DNA of 64,000 nt from Nitrospirota bacterium. Lineage in GTDB: Bacteria > Nitrospirota > Thermodesulfovibrionia > UBA6902. The stretch spans positions 3,439-67,438 of the forward strand of contig JACQXG010000039.1 of NCBI GenBank assembly GCA_016208905.1, written 5' to 3'. The position numbers were made by a program, and so were the translations under genes. This document shows positions 5,619 to 32,137 of the stretch, in pieces. The notes beneath the pieces are model-generated. The model was not told the origin of the DNA, did no database searches, and saw only the letters and a list, made by a program, of their open reading frames with translations. Every line of letters starts with the position of its first letter. Positions within the stretch are counted from its first letter, which is position 1.

Positions 5619-5620
5619 TA

Positions 5621-8380: not shown

Positions 8381-8447
8381 TGAATTCTATTCCAATGGTT
8401 GTAGACATGGAAGGCTGTGGAAGAATTTCTATACGACACCTCTAAAA

Positions 8448-8480
8448 AAGAGTTAAGAGTTAGGAGTAAAGAGTTAAAAG
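8448..8480. repeat. heptanucleotide tandem repeat array (agagtta-type)
   Basis: Reads agagttaagagttaggagtaaagagttaaaag. It is enclosed by a long-range inverted repeat, 8411-8422 against 8551-8563. Confidence 0.7.
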
Positions 8481-8616
8481 AAGAAAAACAATATGATTGC
8501 TATGAAGCAAAAATCTAATAAGTCGTTTGTCGATTATAGAAATTCTGGAACAGACTTCCATGTCTGCTGAAAGATATCAAATAAAATTTAAGATATTTGA
8601 TGACTAATAACATAGT

Positions 8617-9120: not shown

Positions 9121-9125
9121 AGTGA

Positions 9126-10670
9126 TTAATTCTCTTTTTCTTCTATCCCGTATTTCTTCATTTTATACCCGATCTGCCTCGGGGTAATGCCGAGAAGACG
9201 CGCTGCCTTTGCATGAATCCAGCCTGACTTTCCCAGGGCATTAAGGATATTGGCCTTTTCAAGTTCCTCGATATTTGCTGTTAAGGATGATAATTTGTCG
9301 GAATTTTTCAAACGGCATATATTCATAGATACAGGCAGATCTGTCGCGGTTATTATATCTGAACCGGACATAACAACGAGCCTTTCAATAGTGTTTTCAA
9401 GCTCTCTTACATTACCTGGCCAGTGGTAATGTATAAAAACCTGCAAAGCGCTTTTATCCATGACCACGAAGCGGACGTTTTCTTCATTGAATTTATGTAA
9501 GAAATGTTCAATGAGGATTGGTATGTCCTCTTCTCTTTCCCGCAGTGGAGGTAAGAAAAGCGGTATCACATTAAGTCTGAAATAGAGGTCTTCCCGGAAT
9601 TTCCCCTGCGATACCAGGTTTTCAAGGTTGCGGCTTGTTGCGGTAATTATCCTGACATCAACCTTCAGTGTCTTTTCACTGCCTATCCTCTCAAATTCCC
9701 TTTCCTGCAGGACACGCAGGATTTTCGGCTGAAGCGCTGTGGGCAGGTCTCCTATTTCATCAAGGAAAATGGTCCCCTTATTTGCAAGCTCGAACTTGCC
9801 GCTTCTGGAGGAAACGGCCCCGGTAAAGGCCCCTTTTTCATGTCCGAAAAGCTCTGATTCTAAAAGTCCTTCGGGAATTGATGCGCAATTAAACTTAATA
9901 AAAGGCCCTTTGTTCCTCTGGCTCATGTAATGGATTGCTTTGGCGATCAGTTCTTTCCCGGTTCCGCTTTCACCCCGCAAAAGTACGGTTGCCTTTGAAG
10001 GAGAGACCCTGTGGACTGCCTTAAAAACCTCCTGCATCCTGTCAGAGTCGCCGATAATGTTATCAATGCTGTATTTGCCTTTTAACTCTCTCTTTAAATG
10101 CTCCTTTTCTTTTTCGATCCGCTCATAGCTTTCCCATAATTTAATAAACTGAGCTATTAATGAAGCCACGATTTCCAGGACCCTGAGGTCGTCATCGACG
10201 TTCCCCTTTTTTTCCGAATAAATCCTGTCAACGCTCAAAACTCCAAGCACTTCATTTTTAAGCTTGATGGGTATGCACAGGAAAGAAATACCGTCTTTTT
10301 CCGGCCTTGCCCCGGTCTTGTTCAGAAACAAAGGCTCTTTCCCGATATTGGGAATTACCATAGGTATCTTTTTTTCCAATACCCGGCCTACTATCCCTTC
10401 ACCAATCCGGTATTTACCTTTCTCGATATTATCTTTTGTAAGACCATGTGCCGCAACAATGCGGAGTTCCCCTGAAATCTTGTCGAGCAGAAATACGCAC
10501 CCCCTCTGCATTTCAAGCAGGCTCCCGATTGTCGACATTACTGACGACAGGTTTTTCTCAAGGGCAAAAGAGGTGGTGAGGACCTTGCTGACCTCAAGAA
10601 TGGCAGTCAGTTCCCTGTTTTTCTGGAGGATGAGGTCGGTTTTTCTATTTTTATCCGGGACGGATTTCAT
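9126..10670 (-). CDS. sigma-54-dependent transcriptional activator with N-terminal GAF domain (NifA/FhlA-like architecture)
   Basis: Has a GAF-like N-terminus, an AAA+ domain with GESGTGKE and GAFTGA, and a C-terminal HTH. It is divergent from the radical-SAM locus. Confidence 0.85.
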
Positions 10671-11036
10671 TGGCTAACACAAATAAATATATTGGAAAAA
10701 AACAGCGCATTATATTCATACTCAATGAATATAATGAGTTTTTTATTTATTCATCTTGAGAATAAATAATACTAACATCAGGTCAAAGCTTATATCAACT
10801 AAAGGTCCTTATATTACTTAAAGAGTATGGGTTAACACTATAGGTCACCATTGCCGGGTTTATGGATGACGCTTTGATTATTAATTGTGAAATATATGTA
10901 TGAAACGGTATAATAAAAAAGTTGAAATTCAATATAGCTGTAGAAGTTATATTCATATCCACTAGGGAAATTCATAGGAAAGAAAATTAACGCTGCATAC
11001 AACACATAAGTGCAGCTATTTTTTAACGGAGATTTT

Positions 11037-13448
11037 ATGGCAAAAGGTTGTTGTGACACAGGGAGAGAACAGCGTATTAAACAATACGATCTTACTGCAT
11101 GGTCTATTGCGGACCCTAATATTAAGGCTTTTAATTCTGATGATGTCTTATACTCCCCTGAATATTTAAAGAAACAAAAAAACGGTATATCTCTTTTTAT
11201 AGACCCTAAGTCGCCAAACTGGATCAGTGTAAATGAGACAGGGGCTGAGGTCATTAAACTTTGTAACGGCAAACGTGCGCTGTCTGATATTCAGGACTAC
11301 ATTTGCGATAAATATAAGGTAACGAACAAAAAGGAAGTCAGAGATGAAATCTCAAAATTCCTGAGCGCAGCAAGATTACTTGAATTCGTATCAAATACCC
11401 AATTTGTAAGACCTGAATATAAGGGAAGAAGCAGTGCGATTGCCCCCCATAAATTAGATGAACTCTGGATATATTATACGCTTGCCTGTAACCTCAGATG
11501 CAGGCATTGTCTTGTAAGCGCCGGAAAAGGCCTGCGAAAGGAATTGACCAATGACGAATTCAAGAAGGTCATAGACGATTCAATTAAGTTAGGGGTTAAA
11601 CGGTTTTACATTACAGGAGGTGAGCCGTTTATAAAAGAAGGAATATTTGACCTTATTAAATATATTACAAAAACAAAAAAACGTGAACTTATTGTTCTTA
11701 CTAATGCCACTCTTTTTGATGACAAGAAAATAGGAGCCTTGAAGAAGTTAGTCAGTCCCAAACTCCTTTTACAGGTCAGCCTTGAAGGCCCGAATGCGGA
11801 AATTCATGACGCGCTTCGCGGGAAAGGCAGTTTTGATAAGGCTGTAGAAGGTATCAGAAAATTAATAGACATAGGTATCACTCCTATTGTTTCAACGGCC
11901 ATCAGTAAGTTGAATGAGAAAGATATTGCAAAAACTTCCCGCTTTCTGTCAAAGCTTGGCATCCAGGAACATAATGTCCTATGGATGCATGCAAAAGGAC
12001 GGGGCGCGAGTAACTTAAGTGATTTATATGTGCCTTCCGATGATATTGCACGGGCGATGAAAAGACTTAAAAAGGAATATAAAGAGAAGGAGATGATATT
12101 TGATAATGTCGAATCATTGAAAGTCCGTGTCAGGACAAAGAGAGGAAGGAAAAATGACCTGTGCAATAACTGTTATGAAAAAATCTGTGTGAATTCTGAC
12201 GGCAATGTATATCCGTGTGCTTCACTCAATGGTGACAAAAATTTCAATGCAGGGTCCGTCCGTAACAAATCACTTAAAGATATCTGGCTGAATTCGAAGG
12301 CCATGGAAAGAGGCAGGAAAAACAGTGTTCAGGACAAACCGGAATGCAGGGATTGTTATCTTGAGTACTTCTGCGGCGGCGGATGCACATCTCATAGTTA
12401 TTATGCATCGGAAGTAGATACAGGAAAGGGGTCCGTCAAGGCCCTTGATCCTTATTGCTCGACGTATAAAGCATTGTTTGAGGACATTATCTGGGAGCTG
12501 GCTTCTGAGGGAGTTACGCCCCAAAGCGGAAAAGGCTACACTTCTCCTCTGGTTTATAATGCTATGGATTCAAAACTGCCCGGTCATCTTGGCGCAGGGA
12601 TTAAATCAATAGATAAGAATTTTGAAGTAGGGTGCTACCATTGTTCATGCGTGCTGTCGGTTGACGTTGAAGATGATGAAGAAGTTTGCAAACCTGAGAT
12701 AAAGGGACATGTGACCAAGACGGTGAAAAAGAAGTTTTCTAAAGCCGCCTATAATCCTGTAGCTGATTACTACTGTCCTACGGGTTACGCTCCCAATGAC
12801 CTGGCGCATATACCGAATGAAGTGCTCGATGTTTCTTATGGATGCGGCAATCCTGCTGCGCTTGCAGACATTAAAGAGGGGGAAACAATCGTTGATTTAG
12901 GCGCAGGTGGCGGCATTGACTGCTTTATTGCCGCGAAGAAGCTCGGGGATAAGGGCAAGGTAATCGGGATAGACATGACCGATGAAATGCTGGAAAAGGC
13001 AAGAGAAAGTGCGAAGAAAGTTGCAACGGTCCTGGGGTACGACATTGTCGAATTCAAGACAGGAAATATCATGGATATGCCTGTTGAGAGCAATTCGGTT
13101 GATCTGGTCATATCCAACTGTGTTATTAATCTTACTGAGGATAAGGCTAAAGTATTGAAAGAAATATATCGAATATTAAAACCAGGAGGGAGGTTTATTA
13201 TTTCGGATATTGTTTCGGATAAACCTGTTCCCGGATATTTAAAGAGAGACAAAGAACTGTGGAATGCATGTCTTTCAGGAGCTCTCACCGATAGTCAGTT
13301 TGAGGCAGTAGCAAAAAATGCCGGGTTCTCCAGTGTAAATATGACGAAAAATTACCTTTATAAGAAAGTTGAATATATAGAGTTTTATTCAATAACCTTA
13401 AAAGGGAGCAAACCACAGGAAGTCAATTGCTGTTGCTCCTGCAGTTGA
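11037..13448 (+). CDS. multidomain fusion: PqqD-like RRE, radical SAM, SPASM and arsenite-methyltransferase (ArsM/AS3MT)-like SAM-dependent methyltransferase
   Basis: The start is refined to ATG 11037, preceded by a GGAG RBS. The RRE reads NETGAEVIKLCNGKRALSDIQDYICDKYKV...ISKFLSAARLLEF. The rSAM cluster is CNLRCRHC, of CX3CX2C form. Cys-rich SPASM segments read CNNCYEKICVNSDGNVYPC and CRDCYLEYFCGGGC. The C-terminal MT domain has YGCGNP, DLGAGGGIDC, ISNCVINL, LKPGGRFIISD and WNAC, conserving the three AS3MT catalytic cysteines. The protein begins MAKGCC and ends CCCSCS. Confidence 0.8.
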   Translation: MAKGCCDTGREQRIKQYDLTAWSIADPNIKAFNSDDVLYSPEYLKKQKNGISLFIDPKSPNWISVNETGAEVIKLCNGKRALSDIQDYICDKYKVTNKKEVRDEISKFLSAARLLEFVSNTQFVRPEYKGRSSAIAPHKLDELWIYYTLACNLRCRHCLVSAGKGLRKELTNDEFKKVIDDSIKLGVKRFYITGGEPFIKEGIFDLIKYITKTKKRELIVLTNATLFDDKKIGALKKLVSPKLLLQVSLEGPNAEIHDALRGKGSFDKAVEGIRKLIDIGITPIVSTAISKLNEKDIAKTSRFLSKLGIQEHNVLWMHAKGRGASNLSDLYVPSDDIARAMKRLKKEYKEKEMIFDNVESLKVRVRTKRGRKNDLCNNCYEKICVNSDGNVYPCASLNGDKNFNAGSVRNKSLKDIWLNSKAMERGRKNSVQDKPECRDCYLEYFCGGGCTSHSYYASEVDTGKGSVKALDPYCSTYKALFEDIIWELASEGVTPQSGKGYTSPLVYNAMDSKLPGHLGAGIKSIDKNFEVGCYHCSCVLSVDVEDDEEVCKPEIKGHVTKTVKKKFSKAAYNPVADYYCPTGYAPNDLAHIPNEVLDVSYGCGNPAALADIKEGETIVDLGAGGGIDCFIAAKKLGDKGKVIGIDMTDEMLEKARESAKKVATVLGYDIVEFKTGNIMDMPVESNSVDLVISNCVINLTEDKAKVLKEIYRILKPGGRFIISDIVSDKPVPGYLKRDKELWNACLSGALTDSQFEAVAKNAGFSSVNMTKNYLYKKVEYIEFYSITLKGSKPQEVNCCCSCS

Positions 13449-13486
13449 GAAATGAGTTTAAATATAAACAAGAGAGGTAGAGATAA

Positions 13487-14968
13487 ATGAGAGTAACTTT
13501 GGTTAACGCACAGGTATTGGACGGCAATAATGTCGTACCCCCTTTAGGGCTTATGTATATCGCTGCCGTATTGGAAAAGGCCGGACATGCTGTCCAGATA
13601 TTTGATTCCGACCCCGAATACCAGGATACCATGCTTAAGGAGATAAAGGAATTTAATCCTGAATTGATAGGATTAAGTTTCCTGACAGTAGCCTATCAGA
13701 GGGCATTTAACCTTTGTAAGACTTTAAAAAAGGAACTGCCTGATGTTACATATTGTGCAGGAGGAGTGCATACAACAGTTAAACCTCATGATACCTTAAA
13801 AGAATTCGACCTCGATTTCATTGTTATTGGAGAAGGTGAAGACACTATAGTTGAAGTATGTGAGAAACTTGCAAAGAAAGAAGGCGTTGCGGGGATAAAG
13901 GGAGTTATGTACCGTGAAAACGGTGTAATTATTGAAAACGAAAAACGTGATATGATTACTGATCTTGATACCATCCCGTTTCCTGCAAGGCACTTAATAG
14001 ATATGAAACCCTACCTGAAGCCGCCGGGAATTATAAGGGGCTATGCTGAAAAGAACCAGACTACCATTGTTACAAGCAGGGGTTGTCCGTTCAAGTGTAT
14101 CTACTGTGGCAGTCATAACATATTTGGCAGAAGGACAAGAAGACGCTCCGTGAAAAATGTTGTTGACGAGATAGAACATCTGGTCAAGAATTACGATATG
14201 AAGGGTATATATTACTGTGATGATACGTTTACTCTCAGCTCCAAATGGGTAAAAGAATATTGTGAAGAACTGAAGAGGAGAAATCTGAATATTAAATGGG
14301 CTTGCCAGTCAAGGGTGGACCAGACCGACAGGGAATTAATGCAGAGAATGAAAGATTCCGGGCTGGTACAGCTTGACTTTGGCGTAGAAAGCGGTTCTGA
14401 AAAGATCCTCAAAGTGCTGGGCAAAGGCGGCGCCGGCGACAGGACATCACAGATAAAACAGTCTTTTAAACTTTGCAAGGAGCTGGATATCAGGACCCTT
14501 GCAACATTTATTATTGGTAATCCTACAGAAACAAGAGAAGATATAGAAGAAAGTTTTCAGGTAGCAAAAGAGATTGATGCCGATTACACAGCTTTTTATT
14601 TCCTGACTCCTTATCCCGGGACGGATATATATAACATGGCCATTGAAAATGGGTGGCTTGACCCTCACGTCCCGTTCTCAGAGATATGGGCGCACAGGCA
14701 GCCGGAGCTCCCATTGATGGCTATAACATTCGGCAAGGAAGAACTCCGGGATATCCGCAGACACCTGCAGAACCAGTTTTTTGTAAAAAATTATCTCAAG
14801 GCTTCGAGCAATATCAGCTTCTACTCGATACTGTTCAGCATTATCTTCAGGCATCCCAAAGTTATTCTGGATTGTCTTGGTAAACTAATCAGGACCCGAA
14901 GAATTGATTATATCGTTGAGACACTTAACGCGGAATACTGGCGGATGAAAAAGTACGAAGGGGCCTGA
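13487..14968 (+). CDS. B12-binding domain radical SAM protein (class B rSAM methyltransferase-like)
   Basis: Has an N-terminal cobalamin-binding-like Rossmann region, an rSAM cluster CPFKCIYC, and a ~16-18-nt gap after the fusion gene with an AGAGGTAGAG RBS. Confidence 0.8.
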   Translation: MRVTLVNAQVLDGNNVVPPLGLMYIAAVLEKAGHAVQIFDSDPEYQDTMLKEIKEFNPELIGLSFLTVAYQRAFNLCKTLKKELPDVTYCAGGVHTTVKPHDTLKEFDLDFIVIGEGEDTIVEVCEKLAKKEGVAGIKGVMYRENGVIIENEKRDMITDLDTIPFPARHLIDMKPYLKPPGIIRGYAEKNQTTIVTSRGCPFKCIYCGSHNIFGRRTRRRSVKNVVDEIEHLVKNYDMKGIYYCDDTFTLSSKWVKEYCEELKRRNLNIKWACQSRVDQTDRELMQRMKDSGLVQLDFGVESGSEKILKVLGKGGAGDRTSQIKQSFKLCKELDIRTLATFIIGNPTETREDIEESFQVAKEIDADYTAFYFLTPYPGTDIYNMAIENGWLDPHVPFSEIWAHRQPELPLMAITFGKEELRDIRRHLQNQFFVKNYLKASSNISFYSILFSIIFRHPKVILDCLGKLIRTRRIDYIVETLNAEYWRMKKYEGA

Positions 14969-15180
14969 ACTGAAGATAAGTAATAATGAAGAAATGGTGT
15001 TGAAATGCAACGAGTTTTCTTTTTATGTCGGAATTCCTTACTCTTGGCATAGAATTTTACATTTTAACCAGGGCTTGAATTATAGGTATCTTTGAAAATC
15101 AAGGACTTTAACATGAGCATAAGTTTTGCATATTTTAATAGGGATTAAATCAATCCAATTTACTATAATGCATTTAGGAT

Positions 15181-15549
15181 ATGCAGATGATTCGAAATAG
15201 GGTAGTGAAGACCGTTGAAATGGAAAAAAGGCGTTCCCAGAGGAAACCTGTGAGTTTAGACGCAGAAGTTTCCTTTGACGGTAAGAATTATCCCGTATAT
15301 ATAGAAAACATTTCCGAGTATGGATTACATGTGATAGCTGCTGCCGGGAAGAAAGCAGTATCTATTGTACCTGAGATGATACTTAAGCTCGAATTTCAAC
15401 CTCCTGCCGGGGAAAAAACAGACCTGCATTACGAGGTAAGATGGGTGCATATCAATAAAACCCCGATACATGGACTGACATACAGAATGGGTATGGATAT
15501 ATCAGATCAATTTTCAGGGCATAAAGACCTTCTTAACATTCTGGAATAA
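15181..15549 (+). CDS. PilZ domain protein (c-di-GMP receptor)
   Basis: Carries the RRSQRKP (RxxxR) and ENISEYGL (D/NxSxxG) PilZ motifs. Confidence 0.8.
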   Translation: MQMIRNRVVKTVEMEKRRSQRKPVSLDAEVSFDGKNYPVYIENISEYGLHVIAAAGKKAVSIVPEMILKLEFQPPAGEKTDLHYEVRWVHINKTPIHGLTYRMGMDISDQFSGHKDLLNILE

Positions 15550-15572
15550 ATAATATCATGCATTAAAATCCA

Positions 15573-15592
15573 GGGCGAGAGTACCTCGCCCC
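15573..15592. terminator. GC-rich hairpin between convergent genes
   Basis: Reads gggcgagagtacctcgcccc and resembles the hairpin at 4055-4073, both ending ...CGCCCCTACA. Confidence 0.5.
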
Positions 15593-15603
15593 TACATTCG
15601 CGC

Positions 15604-16401
15604 TTACAACCCCTGAACAGGCATAGGTGTAAAGGTCAGGACAAAGATTACAAGAGAGATCCAGCCGATAAGCCTTCTCTTTCTGTCTAATTGGATCTCC
15701 GGGTAAACTACTGGTGGATGTTTGTACCCGAGTATTATCATTAGAACAGCCCATATCAGCCAGCCAGGCCAGAATACAAGTCCGAGAACAACGAGAATGG
15801 GAATCATGCTTTTTGAAATCAAGGCATGTTTTTCTCCAAATAGCGCATATGTTATGTGCCCGCCGTCAAGCTGGCCGATTGGAAGCAGATTAAGCGAAGT
15901 CACTAAAAGACCGATCCATCCTGCAAAGGCCACCGGATGTAGTATTACATCGAATTTTTCAGGATCGGCATTTAAAACAATTTTAGATATAAAAGTGAAC
16001 AATAATGAACTGCCGAAGGCAATTCCGTCCTGAACTTCTTCCGCAGGCCTGACCTCGGACAGATGAAGGCCTGCGATGGATGCGATGACGGCAACAATAA
16101 AGCCGCCTATCGGTCCTGATGCCCCGATATCTATGAGTGAACGCCTGTCAGGTATGGGCGGCTTCATTTTTATAACCGCGCCAAAGGTGCCTATTATTGA
16201 GGGCGCTGGTATGAAATATGGGAGAGTCGCAGGTACGTTATGTTTTCGTGACGTCAGGTAATGGGCCATTTCGTGTGTAAGAAGAATAAAGAGCAGAGTG
16301 AGTGAAAAGGGCAGGCCGAGATAGATTTTTTCCGGCTGCTCCCAGGGGATGATGTTGCGCATCAGGGCTCCGGCAGAGAGCGTTGTCAAAAAGGTCTGCA
16401 T
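15604..16401 (-). CDS. site-2 protease family (M50) zinc metalloprotease
   Basis: Has HEMAHY (HExxH) and the downstream NLLPIGQLDGGH motif, and is multi-TM. The start may be the internal Met at about 16362. Confidence 0.8.
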   Translation of the reverse strand: MQTFLTTLSAGALMRNIIPWEQPEKIYLGLPFSLTLLFILLTHEMAHYLTSRKHNVPATLPYFIPAPSIIGTFGAVIKMKPPIPDRRSLIDIGASGPIGGFIVAVIASIAGLHLSEVRPAEEVQDGIAFGSSLLFTFISKIVLNADPEKFDVILHPVAFAGWIGLLVTSLNLLPIGQLDGGHITYALFGEKHALISKSMIPILVVLGLVFWPGWLIWAVLMIILGYKHPPVVYPEIQLDRKRRLIGWISLVIFVLTFTPMPVQGL

Positions 16402-16747
16402 AAAGAAAATTTTCCCAGTCGGCCAGCTTTTTTATCATACTGAGAAGACCCATATTTTTCCAGTCTACTTCCGGAAGTACCTGCTTGATTCCCATCAGCT
16501 TTGCGCCAACCCAGACAGCCAGAGAAGATAATGGCACAATCGTCCATGGATTATTGACGCTTATGCCGATAATTGCAACCAGCCTGTTTAACCGGAAAAG
16601 CCATGCAAGAAAAATCCCCCCGGCATAATGAAGTCCGAGCAATGGGGATATTCCCATAAACACGCCGAAGGCAAAAGCCAGCGCTATTCGATGCGGTGAC
16701 TCTTTAACTTTAAAAATGCTTCTTAATTTATCTCTGAAATAAGACAT
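16238..16747 (-). CDS. DUF2062 family membrane protein
   Basis: ESPHRIALAFAFGVFMGISPLLGLH...AIIGISVNNPWTIVP is typical of DUF2062. Its 3' end overlaps the M50 gene by about 120-160 nt. Confidence 0.6.
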   Translation of the reverse strand: MSYFRDKLRSIFKVKESPHRIALAFAFGVFMGISPLLGLHYAGGIFLAWLFRLNRLVAIIGISVNNPWTIVPLSSLAVWVGAKLMGIKQVLPEVDWKNMGLLSMIKKLADWENFLYADLFDNALCRSPDAQHHPLGAAGKNLSRPALFTHSALYSSYTRNGPLPDVTKT

Positions 16748-16753
16748 AATATT

Positions 16754-16824
16754 AGCTGTCAGCCATCAGCTGTCAGCGTTCAGCTTTTTAACTGACTGCT
16801 GATTGCTGAACGCTTATCGCTGAT
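16754..16824. terminator. heptamer-repeat hairpin at the 3' end of thiL
   Basis: cagctgtcagccatcagctgtcagcgttcagc and gctgattgctgaacgcttatcgctga are inverted, followed by a T-run. Confidence 0.45.
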
Positions 16825-17781
16825 TTTTTTAAAGTGTTCATATCCTTCCGGTTTAAAGAGTGTTTTCTTCCCCTTGCTATCTATGATATACCGGCCTTCT
16901 TTTATTATTTCCCCAATTTTATAATCATTCGTTTTGTAAGTCGGCCGGGCAGTATATAGCAGGGCATAATCTTCACCGCCTTTTAATGCATATTGCACCG
17001 GGTCTTGCCCCATGCTGTTAGATATGGATCGAAGCTCTTCGGATAAAGGAATATTCTCTTTATAAATTATTGCGCCCACCTTGCTTTCATCACATATATG
17101 ACTTAAATCTGCGAGAAGCCCGTCGCTGACATCTATCATGGATGTCAGTTTAGATGTGCTCTTTAACTGCTTAATATCCGGCATCAGATGTTTCTTAATA
17201 AGTTTTAAACGAGGACTGGCCGGGGAGAATATGTGTACCCGTTTGCCCCGTGTTTTTAAAAGCTGTAAGCCAATTGCTGAATCTCCTAAAGTATCCGTAA
17301 TGAATATCCCGTCTCCTTCTTTAGCGCCTGATCGTGAGACGATTCTGTTTGCATTGCCGATGAGTGTTCCGCTCAGCACAAGTCCCTGTCCTGAAGCGCA
17401 GGTGTCTCCTCCGATAATGGCTATTCCAAATTTCCCGGCGATTTTTTTTACCCCAGAATATAACTCATAAATATCTTCCGAATCATAATCCCCCGGTATG
17501 CCGAGACTTACAAGAAAATATTTGGGAGTTCCGCCCATTGCCAGTATATCGCTTATGTTGACGGCCAGAAATTTGTATCCCAGCTGGAAAAATGTCGTGA
17601 ATGAAAGGTCAAAGTGAACATCTTCAATTAACATGTCGGATGTAATCAGGAATTTTCTATCTGTGACTTTTACAACTGCGGCATCGTCACCAATGCCGGT
17701 CAGAACATCAGATAAAGTACCGGAGCATTTTTTTTGTAATTCTTTTATTAGTCCAAATTCACCCAGTTTTGTAATCTTCAT
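16780..17781 (-). CDS. thiL: thiamine-monophosphate kinase
   Basis: AIR-synthase-related fold with IGDDAAVV. The start is refined to the second Met (MKITKLGEFGLIKEL), because the first ATG at 17811 lies inside the 69-bp repeat. Confidence 0.8.
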   Translation of the reverse strand: MKITKLGEFGLIKELQKKCSGTLSDVLTGIGDDAAVVKVTDRKFLITSDMLIEDVHFDLSFTTFFQLGYKFLAVNISDILAMGGTPKYFLVSLGIPGDYDSEDIYELYSGVKKIAGKFGIAIIGGDTCASGQGLVLSGTLIGNANRIVSRSGAKEGDGIFITDTLGDSAIGLQLLKTRGKRVHIFSPASPRLKLIKKHLMPDIKQLKSTSKLTSMIDVSDGLLADLSHICDESKVGAIIYKENIPLSEELRSISNSMGQDPVQYALKGGEDYALLYTARPTYKTNDYKIGEIIKEGRYIIDSKGKKTLFKPEGYEHFKKISDKRSAISSQLKS

Positions 17782-17803
17782 TATTGTATTAACCAGAATG
17801 ATA

Positions 17804-17872
17804 CATTTCAAATAATGCGGATGTTGGAAAATAAATTAATTTTCGATACATTAAACGCAATATTCATTAATT
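17804..17872. repeat. 69-bp dispersed repeat, copy 2, lying 5' of thiL
   Basis: About 94% identical to 7262-7330. Confidence 0.85.
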
Positions 17873-18010
17873 GGAGCGTACACACTTTAATTTAAAGCCT
17901 CATGCATAATTTCTATTATAGTTATCGAGTTAATTAATTTATTTTTCAATGTCTGCATTATTTAGATTAATCACAACGGATTTCAGGGGTTAAGGAGCAG
18001 GATAAAATCC

Positions 18011-18070
18011 AGTTGTTAGTTGTTTGTTTTTAGTTGTTAGTCTGAAAACAAAAAACTGACAACTAACAAC
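18011..18070. terminator. heptamer-repeat hairpin downstream of lon
   Basis: agttgttagttgtttgtttttagttgttagtc ... ctgacaactaacaac are inverted, followed by TTTTTT. Confidence 0.5.
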
Positions 18071-18166
18071 TTTTTTCTCACCTGAATCCCCGCACCCTGT
18101 CTTGACTTACGGAATTAAAGAGGATGTTATTATGTTATGGGATTAAATTCCAGCAATTATTAAAAG

Positions 18167-20566
18167 CTACTTTTGGCCTTTTCTCTTTTTTATGCTCTTT
18201 TTAACTCTCGTCTTACTGCTTGTCTTAAGGGCGTTTTTCAATACCTCGTCCATAGTTTCAACAGGTATAAACTGCATATCTTTTTTAATATATTTAGGGA
18301 TATCTTCAAGATCTTTTTCATTTCTTTTAGGAATAATTACTTTTTTGATGCCCATTCTCTTTGCTGCAAGGGCCTTCTCTTTTAATCCGCCTATCGGCAG
18401 TACGGTACCGCGCAGAGTTACTTCACCGGTCATGGCAATGCTTTTATGGACAGCCCTGCCCGTAAATATGGAAGCAATGGCTGTGGCCATAGTTATCCCC
18501 GCAGAAGGGCCGTCCTTCGGAATCGCGCCTGCCGGGACATGTATATGAATATCATTATCTGAAAACATGGTATTCTTTATACCGAGGCTTTTTGCCTTTG
18601 AACGTATATAACTTAAGGCTGCATGAGCGGACTCTTTCATTATGTCTCCAAGCTGACCGGTAAGGGTAATGCCGCCTTTGCCTTTCATTATAATTGCTTC
18701 AATATATATTATATCCCCCCCCGCTTCAGTCCAGGCCAATCCGGTTGAAACGCCGACCTCATCTTTCTTGATTTCCTCTTCAGGCAGATATTTAGGCACG
18801 CCGAGATATTTTGACAGATTTATCGAGGAAATATTATATTTTTTGGTCTTGCCTTCAGCAATCTTTCTTGCTACCTTCCTGCAGAGATTGGCGATCTCAC
18901 GCTCAAGGTTTCTTACGCCGGCCTCACTCGTATAGTGGGTGGTAATCTGCAAAAGCGCGCTGTCATTTATTTTAATATCTTTTCCAGAAATGCCATGTTC
19001 AGTCAGCTGCTTGGGGATGAGATAATTTTTGGCTATTCCAGCTTTTTCCTCAGCTGTATAACCGGATAAGTAAAGCACCTCCATTCTGTCTCTCAACGGA
19101 GAAGGAATTGGGTCCATCTGATTTGCAGTTGTTATAAACATTACGTTACTTAAGTCAAAAGGGACTCCCAGGTAATGGTCTGTAAAGGCAAAATTCTGCT
19201 CCGGATCCAAAACTTCTAAAAGCGCGGAGGCGGGATCGCCTCTGAAGTCCATGCCTATTTTGTCAACTTCATCGAGCATAAACACAGGATTGTTTTTGCC
19301 TGTTGTTTTGATACCCTGAATGACCCTTCCCGGCATGGCTCCGACATATGTCCTTCTGTGCCCTCTAATCTCGGCTTCGTCTCTCATTCCTCCGAGGGAC
19401 ATCCTGTAAAACTCCCTTCCAAGAGCTCTGGCAATTGACTTGCCGAGTGAAGTCTTGCCGACTCCCGGCGGTCCCACAAAACACAGAATGGGGCCCTTCA
19501 TTTTGTCTTTTAACTTCCTTACTCCAAGATATTCAAGGATTCGTTCTTTGACCTTTTCAAGATCATAGTGGTCTTCATCAAGGACCTTCTTTGCACGTTT
19601 TATGTCGAGATTATCTTTTGTGCTTTTTGACCATGGCAGTTCCACGAGCCAGTCAACATAAGTTCTGATAGTGCCGGCTTCTGCGCTGTCCTGATGCATT
19701 TTATCGAGACGATTGATCTGTTTTATGGCTTCTTTTTCTACCTTTTCGGGCATCTTTGCTTCGTCAATCTTCTTGCGCAGATCCATGATCTCTTCGGTCT
19801 TTTCATCTATTTCGCCAAGTTCTTTCTGTATGGCCTTCAGCTGCTCCCTGAGAAAATATTCCCGCTGAGTTTTATCTATTTCACCTTTGACGTCTGACTG
19901 GATTTTCTGCTGCACGAGCAGCAGCTCAACTTCTCTGTTCAGGATCTCACTGATTTTATTGAGTCTCAGGATGGGGTCTGTTTCCTCCAGTAATGCCTGT
20001 GCCTGCTCAGCCTTCAAGCCCAGATTTGACGCAACTAAATCTGCAAGCCGTCCCGGTTCTTCTATGTTTTCGATCAGGACAATAATATCAGGCAGGAAAG
20101 ACTTTCCGAGCGCCAGGGATTTATCTACAAGTTCTTTTACATTCCGCATAAGCGCTTCAACTTCTAAAGTTAATTCAGGCTGTTCCTGGTCAACGACTTT
20201 TTCAATCTCTCCGATATAAAACGGATCTGTCTGGTTGTAATTGAGAATCCTTGCTTTTGACAGGCCCTGAACAAGAATTTTAAGTCTTCCGTCCGGCAGT
20301 TTCAGCATTCTTAATATTGTCCCGACTGTACCAACTGCGTAAAGGTCATCTTTGGACGGTGACTCTATATTAACGTCTTTCTGCGAGACAAGCAAAATTA
20401 GTTTGTTGCTTTCAACTGCATGTTCAATTGCCTTTATTGATATATCTCTTCCCACAAACAGAGGTAGAATCATATACGGAAATATGACAACATCTCTTAC
20501 CGGAAGAATTGGCAGGGTTGTCGGAATTTCTATTTCACGCTCTTCCTTTATATCAAAATCTGACAT
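18167..20566 (-). CDS. lon: ATP-dependent Lon protease (LonA)
   Basis: Has the Lon N-domain, an AAA+ GPPGVGKTS, and the S16 catalytic PKDGPSAG...K. It is 799 aa long. Confidence 0.95.
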
Positions 20567-20811
20567 GATCTCTCCTTTTTAGATATTAACCTTTTTTCCG
20601 AATATTATCGGGTCAATTTAAGAGAATCTCTCATTAAGCTATAAGACAATAACAAAAAATTAAGGATATTGTACCATGTTATCGGAGTTATTGAAAGAGG
20701 TTGTGAAAAAAGGAAAAGACGAATTTTTTAATTGAAAAAATAATAAATTAAAGATCAAAAATCAAAACGACAAATTGTAACTATTTAGAAAAATGAATTT
20801 CCGGAAACACT

Positions 20812-20835
20812 ACTGACTTATCTATATGATAAGTC
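20812..20835. terminator. hairpin downstream of galU
   Basis: The palindrome is tgacttatctatatgataagtca. Confidence 0.4.
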
Positions 20836-20843
20836 ATCTCTGC

Positions 20844-21722
20844 TTACTCACAATTATTTTTACACACGCAATTTTTAATAAATTCCTTTAAGTCGCCGCC
20901 GATGTCCTCCCTGTCCAGGGCGTATTTAAGTATGGCTTTCAGGTAGTTTAAAGGATCTCCCGTTGTGAGCCATTCACCTCCTTCTACTTCTTTAGCCATA
21001 AATATTCCCCCATTCTTAACGTATGTTCGAATGGCGTCAACAATCCAGAGTTCATTGTCTTTACCAAGGGGAATGCCTCTTAAAATATCAATGATATCCT
21101 GATTTAAAATCATACGTCCGAAATCAGCCAGTTGCGATGGCGCCTCATTGATTGACGGTTTTTCCACAATATCTTCAATCTCCATATTCCCCTTGCGCAA
21201 TTTCACAATCCCGTACCGGTTTACCACCTCTTTGGGCACTTTCTGTACCCCGATCATTAATTTGCCGTGACGTTTATGATCGTCTATCATCTGTTTGGTA
21301 AAAGGAATGTGTGATTTAACCAGATCATCACCCCATATGTATACGAAGGTTTCATTCTCAACCAGGCTGGCGGCCGACAATACCGGCGTGCCGTTTCCGT
21401 AGGGGCCTTTTTGCCTGACATAAATGAAATTAGCCATATCAGCAACTTTTTTAACATCCTTAACTCGCTTAAGCTTGCCTGCTTTTTGAAGTTCATCAAC
21501 CAATGCCCAGTTATGATCAAAGTGGTCCTCCAGGGGTTTTTTGTCCCACTTGGTTACCATAATGATATCCTCAATTCCGGCTGCGACCAATTCTTCGGCA
21601 ACTAATTGAATAATCGGCTTGTCCACGATCGGCAGCATCTCTTTCGGCATGGTCTTTGTGGCCGGTAAAAATCTTGTACCGGAACCGGCTACTGCTACTA
21701 CGGCTTTCCTGATTTTTGGCAT
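20844..21722 (-). CDS. galU: UTP--glucose-1-phosphate uridylyltransferase
   Basis: KAVVAVAGSGTRFLPATKTMPKEMLPIVDKPIIQ is a GalU N-terminal signature. An unusual Cys-rich C-terminus reads CVCKNNCE. Confidence 0.85.
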   Translation of the reverse strand: MPKIRKAVVAVAGSGTRFLPATKTMPKEMLPIVDKPIIQLVAEELVAAGIEDIIMVTKWDKKPLEDHFDHNWALVDELQKAGKLKRVKDVKKVADMANFIYVRQKGPYGNGTPVLSAASLVENETFVYIWGDDLVKSHIPFTKQMIDDHKRHGKLMIGVQKVPKEVVNRYGIVKLRKGNMEIEDIVEKPSINEAPSQLADFGRMILNQDIIDILRGIPLGKDNELWIVDAIRTYVKNGGIFMAKEVEGGEWLTTGDPLNYLKAILKYALDREDIGGDLKEFIKNCVCKNNCE

Positions 21723-22038
21723 AATACGTTAACTCCCTCTCAGTAATATTTATAAACTTTACATATTTATTGCGAGCATCTTCATGCGGTGTCACTTTTT
21801 AATTGACTCCCGAAGATTTTTGATGAAATATAGAACTTATTTATATCATTTTAAAAAAGATTTGAAGATTATGCAATCGATATCTTGTATGGCACTATTG
21901 TTTTAATTGACAAAAAAAGTTTGATTCCTTAAATTTAAGGACAAAAGTTCGAGAATACAAAAGATCAGAATAACTAAGAGTAAAATGCTATTGTACTTTT
22001 GTCCTATTGCACTTTAATGTATCAGGAGGCTGATTATA

Positions 22039-22455
22039 ATGAAAAGCAAGATTAAATTTGTCGAGAATATGCAATTTGTCGGAACTGCCGATTCCGGCCA
22101 CGCGGTTGTAATGGATGCACCGCCGTCTGCCGGCGGGAATAATATCGGGTCAAAACCTTCTGAACTTCTGCTCATGGCTTTTGGCGGGTGTTCAGGGATG
22201 GATGTTATTTCAATACTAAGAAAGAAGAAACAGGATGTTACAAATTTTGAAATAAACGTAAACGGCGAAACGCCTGAAAGTCATCCCCGTTCGTTTACTG
22301 ACATCCATATCGAATATATAGTTACAGGCCGGAATGTTTCGGAAGAGGCGGTAAAGCGTGCAATTGAACTGTCGCTTGGAAATTATTGCATGGTTGGAAA
22401 TACTATCGGCAAGGCCGCAAAGATAACGCATTCGTATAAGATCGTTCAGGAATAA
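22039..22455 (+). CDS. OsmC/Ohr family peroxiredoxin
   Basis: The conserved Cys pair (GGCSGMD ... GNYCMVGN) is present. Confidence 0.75.
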   Translation: MKSKIKFVENMQFVGTADSGHAVVMDAPPSAGGNNIGSKPSELLLMAFGGCSGMDVISILRKKKQDVTNFEINVNGETPESHPRSFTDIHIEYIVTGRNVSEEAVKRAIELSLGNYCMVGNTIGKAAKITHSYKIVQE

Positions 22456-22462
22456 AGGAGGC

Positions 22463-22565
22463 AGAGTTCAGAGTTATGAGTTATGAGTTATAAATCAGAG
22501 AATGATCGCAAGAAATAGGTTACATTCTTAATTCTTAACTCTTGACTCTTGACTCGTAACTCTTT
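22463..22565. repeat. inverted pair of heptanucleotide tandem arrays (gagttat x3 and aactctt-type), forming a hairpin
   Basis: Array 1 reads agagttcagagttatgagttatgagtta and array 2 reads ttaactcttgactcttgactcgtaactct. The pgpA TTG start lies inside array 2. Confidence 0.75.
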
Positions 22566-23016
22566 ATGTCCTTTGCAAACATTATTTAAATACGTCGCTA
22601 CGCTGGGCTTCATTGGATATCTGCCATATGCCCCCGGCACTTTTGGCTCTGCATTTGGCTTTTTATTTGTAGTATTAATCAAGCCTGATGATTTGAATCT
22701 CCTGATAATCTTCCTGCCTTTATTCCTTCTGGGTATAATAACTTCACATAACACTGAGAAGCTTCTTGGAAAAGACAGCGGGCACATCGTTATTGACGAG
22801 CTTTGCGGATACCTGATTTCCGTGTTGTTAGTTCCGAAGACATTCGGTTCTCTCCTTTCTGCATTTATATTATTCAGAGCGTTTGATATTTTTAAGCCGC
22901 CTCCGATACGCAAGATTGAAAAGGTTGTTCCGGGAGGAGCGGGGATTATGCTGGATGACGTCATGGCAGGGGGGTATGCGAATGTTTGTTTGCAGGTTTG
23001 GATGTATCTTACTTAG
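22549..23016 (+). CDS. pgpA: phosphatidylglycerophosphatase A
   Basis: ATLGFIGYLPYAPGTFGS matches the PgpA motif. There is no in-frame ATG, so TTG is the probable start. Confidence 0.75.
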   Translation: MTRNSLCPLQTLFKYVATLGFIGYLPYAPGTFGSAFGFLFVVLIKPDDLNLLIIFLPLFLLGIITSHNTEKLLGKDSGHIVIDELCGYLISVLLVPKTFGSLLSAFILFRAFDIFKPPPIRKIEKVVPGGAGIMLDDVMAGGYANVCLQVWMYLT

Positions 23017-23099
23017 CGGTTATATTTTATTAAGAAAAACTCATTGTCTTCACATGACATATACTTTATAATAACTAGGGCAAAGGATGAGGTAGAATT

Positions 23100-23417
23100 G
23101 TGGCGGAAGATTACAAGCAGACAATTGACGAAATAGTCAGAAAAATAGCTGAGAAATTCAATCCGTTAAAGATTATACTTTTTGGATCATACGCATACGG
23201 CAGTCCGACTAAAGACAGCGACATTGATCTCCTCATAATAAAAGAAAGTATTATCCCAAGGCACCAAAGGACAAAAGAAGTAAGGCGTATACTTAGAGGA
23301 ATGAAGGTGGCTGTAGACATACTTGTTTATACACCGGAAGAAGTCAGGAAGTGGGAAGGGATAGATACAGCATTTATCACAGGAGTGCTCAAAAAAGGTA
23401 AAGTCCTGTATGGATAA
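23100..23417 (+). CDS. minimal nucleotidyltransferase (MNT) domain protein, putative antitoxin
   Basis: Has LFGSYAYGSPTKDSDIDLLII (hG[GS] ... DxD), a GTG start and an AAAGGATGAGG RBS. Confidence 0.75.
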   Translation: MAEDYKQTIDEIVRKIAEKFNPLKIILFGSYAYGSPTKDSDIDLLIIKESIIPRHQRTKEVRRILRGMKVAVDILVYTPEEVRKWEGIDTAFITGVLKKGKVLYG

Positions 23418-23814
23418 ACAAGACAAAAAACAATCTCTTATAAAAGAATGGAGCTATAAGGCTGAAAGGGACATAGATACTGCCCGTTTGACACATGATA
23501 ACAGGCCTGAATATACAGATATCATTTGCTATCATTGTCAACAAGCAGTAGAAAAATATCTAAAGGCATATCTGGTTTACCTTGATACACCGTTTGAAAA
23601 GAAACACGACCTCGACTATCTTATAGATTTGATAGCAGACAACGACAAAGATATTGAACAGTTTTACGACATCGTAGAAACTCTTTCAGGATATGCAGTT
23701 GAAGTGAGATATCCTGATGACTGGTCAGAGCCAAGCCGGGAGGAAGCAAAAAACGCTTATAAGATTGCTTTGGACATAAAAGATTATGTGGTTAAGATGA
23801 TCAAGATGGATTAG
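23410..23814 (+). CDS. HEPN domain protein, putative toxin partner of the MNT
   Basis: Overlaps the MNT gene by 8 nt. Has a HEPN-like QQAVEKYLKAYL helix and EVRYPD, of COG2250 type. Confidence 0.7.
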   Translation: MDKQDKKQSLIKEWSYKAERDIDTARLTHDNRPEYTDIICYHCQQAVEKYLKAYLVYLDTPFEKKHDLDYLIDLIADNDKDIEQFYDIVETLSGYAVEVRYPDDWSEPSREEAKNAYKIALDIKDYVVKMIKMD

Positions 23815-23886
23815 AAGTTACAAGAAATAATACACAGCACTTTTTTATCTTTCTATGGTATCTTATTTGGGAAATCAAGAAAGACC

Positions 23887-24444
23887 TTGAGAAGTTTTAT
23901 TGCAATAGAATTACCGGACACAGTAAAATCAGCATTGCTGTCGCTTCAGCAGGAGCTTAAAACATGCGGAGCGGATGTAAGATGGGTCAGGCCGGAAGGC
24001 GTTCATCTTACATTGAAGTTTCTCGGGGATATCGAGGAAAAGCTGGTTGACGGAATAGTTGAAACATTAAAGGGGACATGCAGAAAATTCCAGAAGTTTA
24101 ATTGTGAAGTAAGGGGTATTGGTGTTTTTCCCGGGAACAAGGCACCGCGTGTATTATGGGCCGGTATAGAGGACCATGACGCATTGAAGCTCATTCAGAA
24201 GGAAATTGATACCGGGATGTCTTCACTCGGATTTGAACGGGAAGACAGAAAATTCACCCCGCATTTGACCCTGGGCAGGTTCAGGTCTTCAGAGGGGAAA
24301 ATGACTTTGATTAATAAGATGGGGGCCTATAAAGAATATAGCGTTGGCATAATTGATGTTAATCGTATATCATTTATGAGAAGCGATTTAGGCCCGGCAG
24401 GGGCAAAGTATACAAAGATAGCTGAGATACCATTGGGGGATTAG
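23887..24444 (+). CDS. thpR: RNA 2',3'-cyclic phosphodiesterase (2'-5' RNA ligase family, ThpR/LigT)
   Basis: Has two H-x-T-x motifs, HLTLKFLG and HLTLGRF. Confidence 0.85.
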   Translation: MRSFIAIELPDTVKSALLSLQQELKTCGADVRWVRPEGVHLTLKFLGDIEEKLVDGIVETLKGTCRKFQKFNCEVRGIGVFPGNKAPRVLWAGIEDHDALKLIQKEIDTGMSSLGFEREDRKFTPHLTLGRFRSSEGKMTLINKMGAYKEYSVGIIDVNRISFMRSDLGPAGAKYTKIAEIPLGD

Positions 24445-24495
24445 ATTTTAGACTGACAACTGACAACTAACAACTTTAAAATATAGGGAGGCAAA

Positions 24496-25491
24496 ATGTC
24501 TGATAAGGACCGTGCGAAGGCGCTTGAAGTTGCCATATCGCAAATAGAAAAGCAGTTCGGCAAAGGCGCTATTATGCGTCTGGGCTCAGAGGGAGTAGTA
24601 GAGATTCCTGCTATTCCGACAGGCTCTATCGGGCTGGATGCAGCCCTCGGAGTAGGCGGTTTTCCAAGAGGGAGGGTCATCGAAATTTACGGCCCTGAAT
24701 CTTCCGGGAAAACGACCCTCGCGCTTAGCGCCATCGCGCAGGCCCAGAAGGCAGGGGGAGCAGCAGCTTTTATTGATGCGGAACACGCGCTGGATGTATC
24801 CTATGCAGGAAGACTCGGGGTCAATATTAATGACCTGCTTATCAGCCAGCCGGACACCGGTGAACAGGCCCTGGAAGTCACTGAAACATTAGTCCGCAGC
24901 GGGGCAATTGATATCATAGTTATAGATTCAGTCGCGGCGCTTGTCCCGCGGGCGGAGATTGAAGGTGAAATGGGTGACAGTCTGCCGGGGCTTCAGGCAA
25001 GGCTTATGAGTCAGGCTTTAAGAAAACTCACCGCTGCTATTTCAAAGGGGCAGACAACGGTCATCTTCATCAATCAGATAAGAATGAAGATAGGGGTCAT
25101 GTTTGGAAATCCTGAAACAACGACCGGGGGAAACGCGCTCAAGTTTTATTCCTCAGTACGGCTTGATATCAGGAGGATTGAAGGCCTAAAAAACGGCCAG
25201 GAATCAATAGGCAACAGGGTGAGGGTAAAGGTTGTAAAAAATAAAGTCGCGCCTCCTTTTAAACAGGCGGAATTTGATATATTCTTTAATGAAGGGATTT
25301 CAAGGCTTGGCGAGCTTGTTGACCTCGGAATTGAGAAAAAAATAGTAGAGAGGGCGGGCGCATGGTATTCTTATAAAGGCAACAAGATAGGACAGGGTAG
25401 AGAAAATGCAAAGGAATATCTCAAGTCAAATCCTGAAATAGCAGGGGAGATTGAGACAAAAATACTTGAGGAATATAATTTTAAGAGGTAG
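24496..25491 (+). CDS. recA: recombinase RecA
   Basis: Has [12 protein letters not shown] Walker A and is colinear with RecA. Confidence 0.97.
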
Positions 25492-32011: not shown

Positions 32012-32051
32012 TATTCAGCCTCCCCCTGATTTGATATAATTACTAATATAA

Positions 32052-32112
32052 AAGTGAGAAGTGGGAAGTAAGAAGTGAGAAGTAAAGAAAACGCCTTGAA
32101 CTTCCTTCTTAC
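32052..32112. repeat. heptanucleotide tandem array (gaagtga-type) with inverted partner
   Basis: aagtgagaagtgggaagtaagaagtgagaagtaaag ... acttccttcttactt. The same unit occurs in frame inside murD. Confidence 0.75.
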
Positions 32113-32137
32113 TTAATCTATTAAAAGGAGCAATGTC

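Follow-up and report, generated by a model that had tools for sequence, protein, structure and literature searches.

Heptanucleotide tandem arrays, often in inverted pairs, between and within genes of a Nitrospirota bacterium and its relatives

A 64-kb stretch of DNA from a Nitrospirota bacterium (the window) was found to contain about 15 dispersed arrays of tandemly repeated 7-nucleotide (nt) units, which fall into a few unit families and lie both between and inside genes. The analysis covered this window and 80 loci of approximately 20 kb from relatives (labeled L001 and so on). On balance, we lean towards the view that the arrays represent a lineage-wide family of slippage-prone heptanucleotide repeats that occupy insertion-tolerant sites and whose hairpin complementarity is maintained at the nucleotide level. 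The best matches to the MurD protein of the window came from metagenome-assembled Nitrospirota, Nitrospiraceae and Thermodesulfovibrionales genomes, the closest being 78% identical, and the source is a Nitrospirota bacterium related to Thermodesulfovibrionia.

A preliminary description of the window had reported several copies of heptamer arrays, and this was borne out by Tandem Repeats Finder (TRF), which returned about 20 period-7 rows, and by two period scans. The strict scan detected seven arrays with period 7, none or one with each other period from 4 to 12 and none in shuffled sequences. The lenient scan detected 18 regions with period 7, again none or one with the other periods and 0.2 in dinucleotide-preserving shuffles. 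A computational scan had been proposed as the check on period-7 structure, and period 7 alone stood out. The units in the window were GAGTTAT, AAGAGTT, CTGACAA, AGCTGTC, AGTTGTT, AAGTGAG, AAGGGGC and CCGTCAC. Clear heptamer arrays were present at seven of the nine sites originally listed (8448, 16754, 18011, 22463, 24453, 32052 and 60549), whereas 5621-5686 was of mixed 6/7-nt composition and 37431-37459 was weak. All nine are intergenic, as had been stated, but seven further arrays inside coding regions (46002, 57352, 60969, 61138, 61185, 61423 and 61540) had been missed. A 14-nt super-period was also called by TRF at 16754-16785, 18042-18071, 60545-60575 and 61540-61574, where two unit variants alternate; in coding arrays such alternation can avoid stop codons, as with GAGTTAA and GAGTTAT in L002.

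It had been asked whether the arrays might be confined to the window. This was not the case, and a period-7 excess was observed in many related Nitrospirota loci. Across the 80 loci, period-7 arrays were common in many Nitrospirota, with 11 in L006, 8 in L030, 6 in L017 and 5 each in L001 and L013 and with other periods near zero; the close relatives L004, L005, L009 and L010 had no period-7 arrays within the same 20 kb, and L022 was also array poor. One or two arrays each were also detected in L069 and L071, which belong to the Pyrinomonadaceae (Acidobacteriota), so that the trait is not limited to one phylum. Sharing of units (at most one mismatch in any rotation or strand, for arrays more than 300 nt apart) was found for 25% of array pairs from the same genome, 7.3% of pairs from different genomes and 2.0% of pairs with shuffled units. 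In L030, ten arrays within 20 kb all belonged to the family A[AT]T[GC]CGG. An automatic sorting of the arrays in the loci into coding and intergenic ones (103:25) was disregarded as too lenient, since stop-to-stop ORFs on either strand were counted as coding.

The intergenic arrays of the window are listed below, with z scores for predicted folding relative to shuffled sequences; no strand is assigned to paired sites.

5621-5686, no strand: mixed 6/7-nt hairpin, AGTGTC / TGACACT, between convergent genes, with TTTTT 3' on the plus strand; TRF period 6; fold of 5615-5695, -36.1 kcal/mol, z = -7.4.
8446-8480, plus strand: unpaired array, (AAGAGTT) x4.3, downstream of the open reading frame (ORF) at 7391-8380; TRF and lenient scan; no hairpin.
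16754-16824, no strand: inverted pair NNTCAGC / GCTGANN, overlapping the end of thiL and stopping 7 nt short of the start codon of the DUF2062 gene, both genes being on the minus strand; fold of 16750-16832, z = -5.3.
18011-18071, no strand: inverted pair AGTTGTT / CAACTAA, in the spacer that separates the minus-strand genes lon and thiL; TRF periods 7 and 14; fold of 18005-18080, z = -4.2.
22462-22565, no strand: inverted pair (GAGTTAT)n / (TCTTAAC)n with a spacer of about 30 nt, between osmC and pgpA, the site originally flagged; TRF at 22471-22491 and 22526-22564; fold of 22455-22570, -37 kcal/mol, z = -3.8, one mismatch per 7 nt.
24452-24475, plus strand: unpaired array, (ACTGACA) x3.4, in the thpR-recA spacer, where it lies upstream of the Shine-Dalgarno sequence of recA; TRF and lenient scan.
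32052-32112, no strand: array (AAGTGAG) x4.6, whose complementary right arm is short, flanked by genes for an HDOD-domain protein and an NAD(P)H oxidoreductase; TRF; fold of 32045-32120, z = -3.2.
37431-37459, plus strand: weak AAGAGTT-like array, a doubtful member, between arsR and a P-type ATPase gene; no signal with TRF, the lenient scan or folding.
60545-60626, no strand: inverted pair ATCAGCA / CTGACAG, filling the mraY-murD spacer and stopping 3 nt before the murD ATG; fold of 60540-60630, z = -5.7.

The claim that the arrays occur as inverted pairs forming long hairpins was upheld for six of these nine sites (z = -3.2 to -7.4) but not for 8448, 24452 and 37431, for which no complementary partner was found within 250 nt. 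The arms of the paired sites are 9 to 35 nt apart, and a mismatch or small internal loop falls about every seven bases in the stems, a consequence of systematic differences between left-arm and right-arm units at one or two positions. The orthologous mraY-murD spacers of relatives were variable yet structured. The reported overlaps with the 3' end of thiL and with the TTG start of pgpA were confirmed. The last 16 or so codons of thiL are encoded by the array (KKISDKRSAISSQLKS), and the ThiL profile match stops at residue 327 in a protein of 343 residues. For pgpA there are two candidate TTG starts, 22549 and 22573, each located within or right after the right arm of 22462-22565. Eight of the nine intergenic arrays were in spacers between co-directional genes, one was between convergent genes and none was between divergent genes. 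The seven divergent spacers make up 30% of the intergenic length, and the probability of finding no array there by chance is approximately 0.04. Units that contain CTGACA (24453-24482 and, on the minus strand, 16776-16749) resemble the -35 hexamer TTGACA and gave a promoter-like score with a downstream TAAAAT or TAATAT box; this is probably a coincidence, with the implied transcription starts too near or beyond the start codons.

Arrays inside genes were detected at four insertion sites in murD and at one in murE, both of which are essential for the cell wall, and at one in a DUF3108 gene, all of them in frame and free of stops.

46002-46036, minus strand: degenerate array (AGAGCAC) in the N-terminal, non-domain part of the DUF3108 protein (gene 45319-46101, minus strand), whose Pfam domain starts at residue 50.
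56516-58039, plus strand: murE, host of one array.
57352-57383, plus strand: in-frame array (AGGGGCA) x4.6 in murE, encoding SGARGKGQGAREG, an insertion at a strand-turn-strand position.
60630-62156, plus strand: murD, host of four array sites, 508 residues against 431 to 447 in insertion-free orthologues.
60969-60999, plus strand: murD site 1, (AAGGGGC) x4.4, in frame and right in front of the P-loop; unpaired, with four G-tracts.
61138-61213, plus strand: murD site 2, in-frame arrays (GGGGCAA) x4.4 at 61138 and (CCGTCAC) x4.1 at 61185, with weak mutual pairing (z = -2.4).
61423-61456, plus strand: murD site 3, left arm, (AAGTGAG) x4.9, in frame and encoding KVRSEKLEVRSEK; the third unit is AAGTTGG.
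61540-61574, plus strand: murD site 4, right arm, (CCCNCTT) x5, complementary to site 3, from which it is separated by 63 nt of conserved coding sequence.

Since 7 is not a multiple of three, translation of an array within a gene passes through each of the three frames, with seven residues (such as KGQGARG) for every three units, and a unit that contains a stop triplet cannot persist as a perfect array. Direct reading of 61419-61456 showed that the third AAGTGAG unit of murD is AAGTTGG exactly where an in-frame TGA would fall. An alignment of MurD from the window and 24 loci placed the four insertion sites relative to the orthologues of 431 to 447 residues: site 1 before the P-loop, site 2 between GNALTEE and VAEISSFQLE, site 3 after NADDP and site 4 before IKIKGAHN. 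The solved MurD structure 3lk7 has gaps at all four sites when aligned. In a model of MurD with a mean predicted local distance difference test (pLDDT) value of 86, site 2 was a disordered loop (approximately 50), site 1 was intermediate and sites 3 and 4 were structured (82 to 95). The unit AAGGGGC recurs in murE and in murD sites 1 and 2. On the sense strand, these three arrays (57352-57383, 60969-60999 and 61138-61168) have four to five GGGG runs spaced 3 nt apart, the canonical layout of a G-quadruplex; G-rich arrays are a minority in the window. The terminal variant GGGGCAAGGGGCGAGGGA is common to the array in murE and the one at murD site 2, a hint that one of the two was copied from the other.

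Comparison with relatives demonstrated that orthologous sites are occupied again and again, often by different units. At murD site 1, the following units were observed.

Window: AAGGGGC.
L001: TCAGCTG.
L002: GAGTTAT / CATCACC.
L003: GGGGTCA / AACCCCC.
L006: GGGTCAA / GCCCCTT.
L013: AAGGGTC.
L014: TCGGCAA.
L017: GGCAAGA / GCCTATC.

In several relatives, the site 1 insert itself holds a complete inverted pair. A number of the G-rich units differ from each other by one step, a pattern that would be consistent with drift of a shared ancestral array, and TCAGCTG and GAGTTAT are unrelated to them. The murE site carried (GGGGCAA)n in the window, L001 and L006 despite protein identities of 66 to 82%, carried (AGAAGTC)n in L007 and L008, and was empty in L009, L012 and relatives further away. 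In a set of 120 MurD homologues, the lengths of sites 1 to 4 ranged from 7 to 37, 10 to 46, 13 to 30 and 10 to 33 residues, respectively. No near-identical relative of the window's MurD was available for comparing copy numbers, the closest protein being 78% identical, and strain-level variation was read from another cluster. There, a difference of whole units was detected between L081 and L002, which are 97% identical over approximately 700 nt: the sole indel is exactly 21 nt, or three units (CCCATCA CTCATCA CCCGCCA), in the right arm of murD site 1. L081 has lost three of the four right-arm units, so that the reading frame is kept and the hairpin is destroyed. In L006, the C terminus of MurG (13850-13916) is a complete heptamer hairpin with a GGGTCAA arm and a CGGACCC arm; the stop codon follows directly, and the murC ATG lies 4 nt further on.

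The arms at murD sites 3 and 4 gave a predicted long-range fold of -51.9 kcal/mol (z = -4.5). The 63 nt between them are conserved MurD coding sequence that is present also in array-free orthologues. Column-wise alignment of the arms is not feasible between unit families, and the segment has the same length in only 13 loci; in place of base-pair covariation, a matrix of duplex energies for same-locus and cross-locus combinations was used. Three classes of arms were distinguished, AAGTGAG/CTCACTT, GGTTGAA/TTCAACC and GATAGGC/GCCTATC. Duplex energies were -29 to -51 kcal/mol for arms that share a locus or a class, compared to about -12 to -20 kcal/mol for arms of different classes. In many loci and orthologues the pairing of sites 3 and 4 was lost altogether. 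The fraction of identical codons at conserved residues was 0.66 for the arms, 0.44 for the remainder of murD and 50% for the loop, with a Fisher P value of about 1e-13 that is indicative only, the pairs compared being phylogenetically non-independent. This synonymous excess was observed in 10 of 10 pairs among five lineages that keep the hairpin and was absent in pairs with L009, whose hairpin has decayed. These results indicated that the paired arms are under nucleotide-level constraint and that the unit classes are mutually incompatible.

The favored explanation begins with the gain and loss of whole units at the DNA level, which would occur through misalignment of neighboring 7-nt units during replication or repair. 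Turnover of units and exchange between arrays would then produce homogeneous arrays and a few unit families that recur across the genome. Arrays would survive only where extra sequence is tolerated, that is, in transcribed spacers downstream of genes, at the extreme ends of genes and in surface or linker segments of proteins, such as the four in MurD and the one in MurE. Within genes, selection would pass only frame-keeping changes (multiples of three units, or 21 nt) and stop-avoiding unit variants. Inverted partners would pair into a long stem that is mismatched roughly once per 7 nt, and its complementarity would be kept at the nucleotide level, either through copying from one arm to the other or because the folded DNA or transcript is under selection. 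Such hairpins would not be canonical terminators, and any putative RNA-level role, for example in protection of transcript 3' ends or in processing, would be secondary. We infer slippage as the molecular cause, exchange among arrays and arms, and tolerance as the reason for the hot spots.

Several points weigh against this explanation. Slippage was not seen directly, and the L081/L002 indel is the single turnover event on which whole-unit change rests. The occurrence of different unit families at one orthologous site, such as AAGGGGC in the window and TCAGCTG in L001, is hard to obtain by point mutation and slippage and hints at replacement or insertion events. Site 3 measures 19 to 20 residues in 112 of 125 homologues and site 4 measures 19 residues in 65 of 125; both are well structured in the model. 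By now the two may simply be normal parts of the protein that are selected at the protein level, in which case the nucleotide periodicity would be a relic in some of the clade. The synonymous excess, besides the non-independence of the pairs, could stem from a functional RNA hairpin and not from homogenization. Finally, the evidence and its statistics come from one 64-kb window and loci of about 20 kb.

A tenable but unlikely alternative is that the hairpins are functional RNAs selected as such, those in spacers serving as terminators, as protectors of 3' ends against exonucleases or as processing sites, and that of murD sites 3 and 4 serving as an intragenic regulator which, for example, slows ribosomes around a folding unit or controls mRNA decay. 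The strong and significant folds, the placement in transcribed spacers downstream of genes, with all seven divergent spacers free of arrays, the covariation of the arms in three classes and the restriction of the synonymous excess to hairpin-keeping lineages would all be expected of such elements, and regular mismatches would blunt cleavage by double-strand-specific ribonucleases. The preliminary view that the arrays probably act as terminators was mostly not supported. A consensus terminator scan of 5000-24999 called no paired-arm hairpin as a whole, its matches being two short stems inside one arm at 16754-16785, and the canonical terminator reading was rejected. The paired-arm stems are A/U rich with periodic mismatches and loops of 9 to 35 nt, in place of the G+C-rich stem, loop of 3 to 8 nt and 3' U-tract of a terminator. 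The T-runs that follow 16754-16824 (at 16825) and 18011-18070 (at 18071) are on the plus strand, whereas lon, thiL and the DUF2062 gene are on the minus strand. Hairpins 22463 and 60549 run up to the next start codon within co-directional gene pairs, and the presence of arrays of the same kind inside murD and murE is contrary to a terminator role. The sole terminator-like site is 5621-5686, where a hairpin between convergent genes is followed by TTTTT in the expected place, a partial fit.

Other RNA-level results also bore on this alternative. Three intergenic arrays, the murE array and murD site 1 have no partner, which counts against a role for the hairpin as such. The loss of three of four right-arm units in L081 and the many orthologues that lack pairing of sites 3 and 4 show that the hairpin is dispensable. 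Rfam covariance models had no match at the gathering threshold in the whole 64-kb window. When G-U wobble was considered, the plus strand folded better at all eight sites tested, including two with minus-strand genes, and wobble pairs favored the plus strand by 6 to 1 even where genes are on the minus strand; this gives no support to selection on the sense transcript and counts against it, the plus strand being favored irrespective of gene direction. This preference fits better with a compositional bias of the DNA strands, and the GC skew is positive along most of the window. Shine-Dalgarno-like motifs, AAGGAGG (22455; region 22453-22461) and AAGAGG (60541-60547), lie directly 5' of the two hairpins whose 3' ends touch a start codon, and folding of hairpins 22463 and 60549 would join motif and start codon. 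A split ribosome-binding site was considered and dropped; orthologous spacers between mraY and murD do not conserve the motif, and in every relative examined murD was without a Shine-Dalgarno sequence.

A further proposal, which we judge quite unlikely as a joint claim, is that an active, family-specific process repeatedly rewrites the hot spots, the loops of MurD and MurE among them, leaving different near-perfect arrays at orthologous sites of different species, and that the co-evolving sites 3 and 4, around their conserved 63-nt segment, in addition form a selected intragenic hairpin in the murD mRNA or DNA.

Insertion of the hairpins as miniature mobile elements by a trans-acting enzyme at preferred targets, in the manner of REPINs, MITEs (miniature transposable elements with inverted repeats) or the small dispersed repeats of Nostoc, appeared distinctly improbable. 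Inverted-pair architecture, dispersal of unit families within genomes and occupation of one hot spot by different families in different genomes are features that such elements share. The hot spots are also shared with a family of small GC-rich palindromes (GGGCGA..TCGCCC and relatives), which in L001 occupies murD sites 1 and 2 and in L006 the murE site, and small dispersed repeats nested in the heptamer repeats of Nostoc are a parallel to this. Copies of the palindrome were located as follows.

L001, 9954-9973, 10372-10392, 10576-10596 and 16644-16664: four copies, two of them inside murD.
L006, about 6640-6670 and 11541-11561: two copies.
Window, 15573-15591: one copy downstream of the M50 peptidase gene, reading GGGGCGAGGTACTCTCGCCCT followed by GGATTTT on the minus strand.

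The window copy looks like a genuine terminator. The peptide words GRGEAVPRP, GERPFAPT and GAIHESPLQ recur at murD sites 1, 2 and 4 in many MurD homologues. These words and GANGRSPL, which is also recurrent in many MurD homologues, are produced by the palindrome family. Against an origin by transposition, the arms of murD sites 3 and 4 bracket native conserved coding sequence; since array-free orthologues have that 63-nt "loop" as well, the arms cannot have come in together as a single element. Changes in copy number involve whole units, and many arrays are single. A MITE has terminal inverted repeats with a target-site duplication and is inserted as one unit, whereas no target-site duplications were seen at array borders. 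Pfam and NCBIfam scans of all long ORFs in the window detected no transposase, RAYT-type or other, and no reverse transcriptase; the only recombinase found was XerC/D-like (51623-52561), just upstream of the mraZ-led cluster of cell-division genes.

Among known elements of this kind, the palindromic elements of Rickettsia are inserted in frame into protein genes at tolerated positions and resemble the murD and murE arrays in this respect. REP, REPIN and Rickettsia elements have a fixed length and no internal 7-nt periodicity, and REPs and REPINs are imperfect palindromes associated with the RAYT (IS200/IS605-like) transposase, on which REPINs depend. The arrays are like REPINs in being dispersed inverted-repeat hairpins in transcribed extragenic space (PMC3116915). 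They differ from both REPINs and the Rickettsia elements in their tandem arms of variable copy number, one pair of which brackets native coding sequence.

We consider it highly improbable that the arrays are binding or structure sites acting as single strands, whether recognized by a heptad-specific nucleic-acid-binding protein that acts on translation or transcription, a role proposed for TAACTGA repeats, or, for the AAGGGGC arrays, folded as G-quadruplexes. Family-specific units do recur within and between genomes, and the start codons that adjoin arrays 16754, 22463 and 60549 have no Shine-Dalgarno sequence, as in the Beggiatoaceae (PMC4679880). The four to five G-tracts and 3-nt loops of AAGGGGC follow the quadruplex-forming pattern of Xanthomonas and Nostoc repeats (PMC4692102). 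Nevertheless, no single recognition sequence fits the many unrelated unit families that coexist, units differ between relatives at one and the same site, G-rich arrays are few and no candidate binding protein was identified. Chance low-complexity sequence or an assembly artifact, which may account for the AT-rich period-7 regions at 20738 and 52598 and for weak site 37431, is refuted for the main set of arrays by the excess of period 7 alone over all other periods and shuffles, by the preserved frame of essential genes and by recurrence at orthologous sites in independently assembled genomes.

The arrays had been called STRR-like. The short tandemly repeated repetitive (STRR) heptanucleotides of heterocystous cyanobacteria (Calothrix and Anabaena/Nostoc) are the classic case, with units such as CCCCAGT, TTGGTCA and CAACAGT. 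They consist of tandem 7-nt units in a few copies, belong to several families per genome, are dispersed mostly in intergenic transcribed DNA and have no established function. The comparison was apt as regards behavior, the window arrays also being tandem 7-nt units of several families dispersed mostly in transcribed spacers downstream of genes, but not as regards unit sequence or host: the host belongs to the Nitrospirota, the units are unlike those of STRR, and the arrays are often inverted-paired and in frame inside essential genes. The relation is one of resemblance and not of membership. Three Calothrix heptanucleotides are mentioned in PMC4692102.

The heptamers GGGAATC and GGGGA(C/T)T of Xanthomonas and Nostoc were described by Rehm et al. 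in 2015 (PMC4692102). They are enriched between co-directional ORFs, depleted between divergent ORFs and preferentially present in about four units, and each Xanthomonas genome has 70 to 75 cases of two convergent, opposite-strand GGGAATC arrays able to form stem-loops (PMC4692102). The same spacer distribution was found here, AAGGGGC has the same layout of four G-tracts, and six intergenic and one or two intragenic pairs gave significant folds; since inverted pairs were already described in Xanthomonas, the paired architecture is not new. In those genomes one G-rich family dominates and coding regions are underrepresented, whereas many families are present here, mostly not G-rich and several of them coding. 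TAACTGA direct repeats occur in marine Beggiatoaceae, some cyanobacteria and some Bacteroidetes in 2 to 6 copies, often right upstream of start codons without a Shine-Dalgarno sequence and occasionally within ORFs at the protein periphery, including the end of MurG (MacGregor 2015, PMC4679880). The window unit CAACTGA is one base off, and the MurG C terminus of L006 is likewise a heptamer hairpin. TAACTGA is a single unit that is almost never inverted (one indirect repeat in 170 sets; PMC4679880), whereas the arrays described here have many units, commonly in inverted pairs and also internal to proteins.

According to the account of Mrazek et al. (2007) given in PMC4679880, heptanucleotides are the most abundant of the long simple-sequence repeats of 5 to 11 nt in many prokaryote genomes, polymerase slippage in a 7-nt register was proposed, and repeats in coding regions mostly have unit lengths that are multiples of three. 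The whole-unit change between close relatives (the single 21-nt case of L081 and L002) is a likeness to such repeats, and the 7-nt units in coding sequence are a difference from them, as far as that account goes. In a later cross-phylum survey of sequence patterns by Huang and Mrazek (PMC4060949), Nitrospirae is mentioned neither in the running main text nor in the phylum key to the table, and our literature searches found no earlier report linking such heptamer repeats to Nitrospirota. What is distinctive here is the coexistence of many unit families, the clade-wide reoccupation of internal protein sites and one pair of arms that co-varies around conserved coding sequence.

Among other features of the window, a toxin-antitoxin-like pair of nucleotidyltransferase and HEPN genes lies between pgpA and thpR (23100-23814).

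Heptanucleotide repeats, known from cyanobacteria, Xanthomonas and Beggiatoaceae, now extend to a deep-branching and mostly uncultured phylum, and this wider reach argues for a general mutational process that can be switched on and off by lineage. Dozens of relatives differ in the arrays that they have at the murD and murE positions, some having none, so that array turnover, filtering by frame and co-evolution of arms become measurable. There is also an effect on annotation, in that the arrays make proteins longer (MurD has 508 residues compared to about 440), add C-terminal extensions (thiL in the window and MurG in L006) and blur the start call of pgpA. If the murD hairpin is indeed selected, it would be a rare structured element built of tandem repeats within an essential gene.

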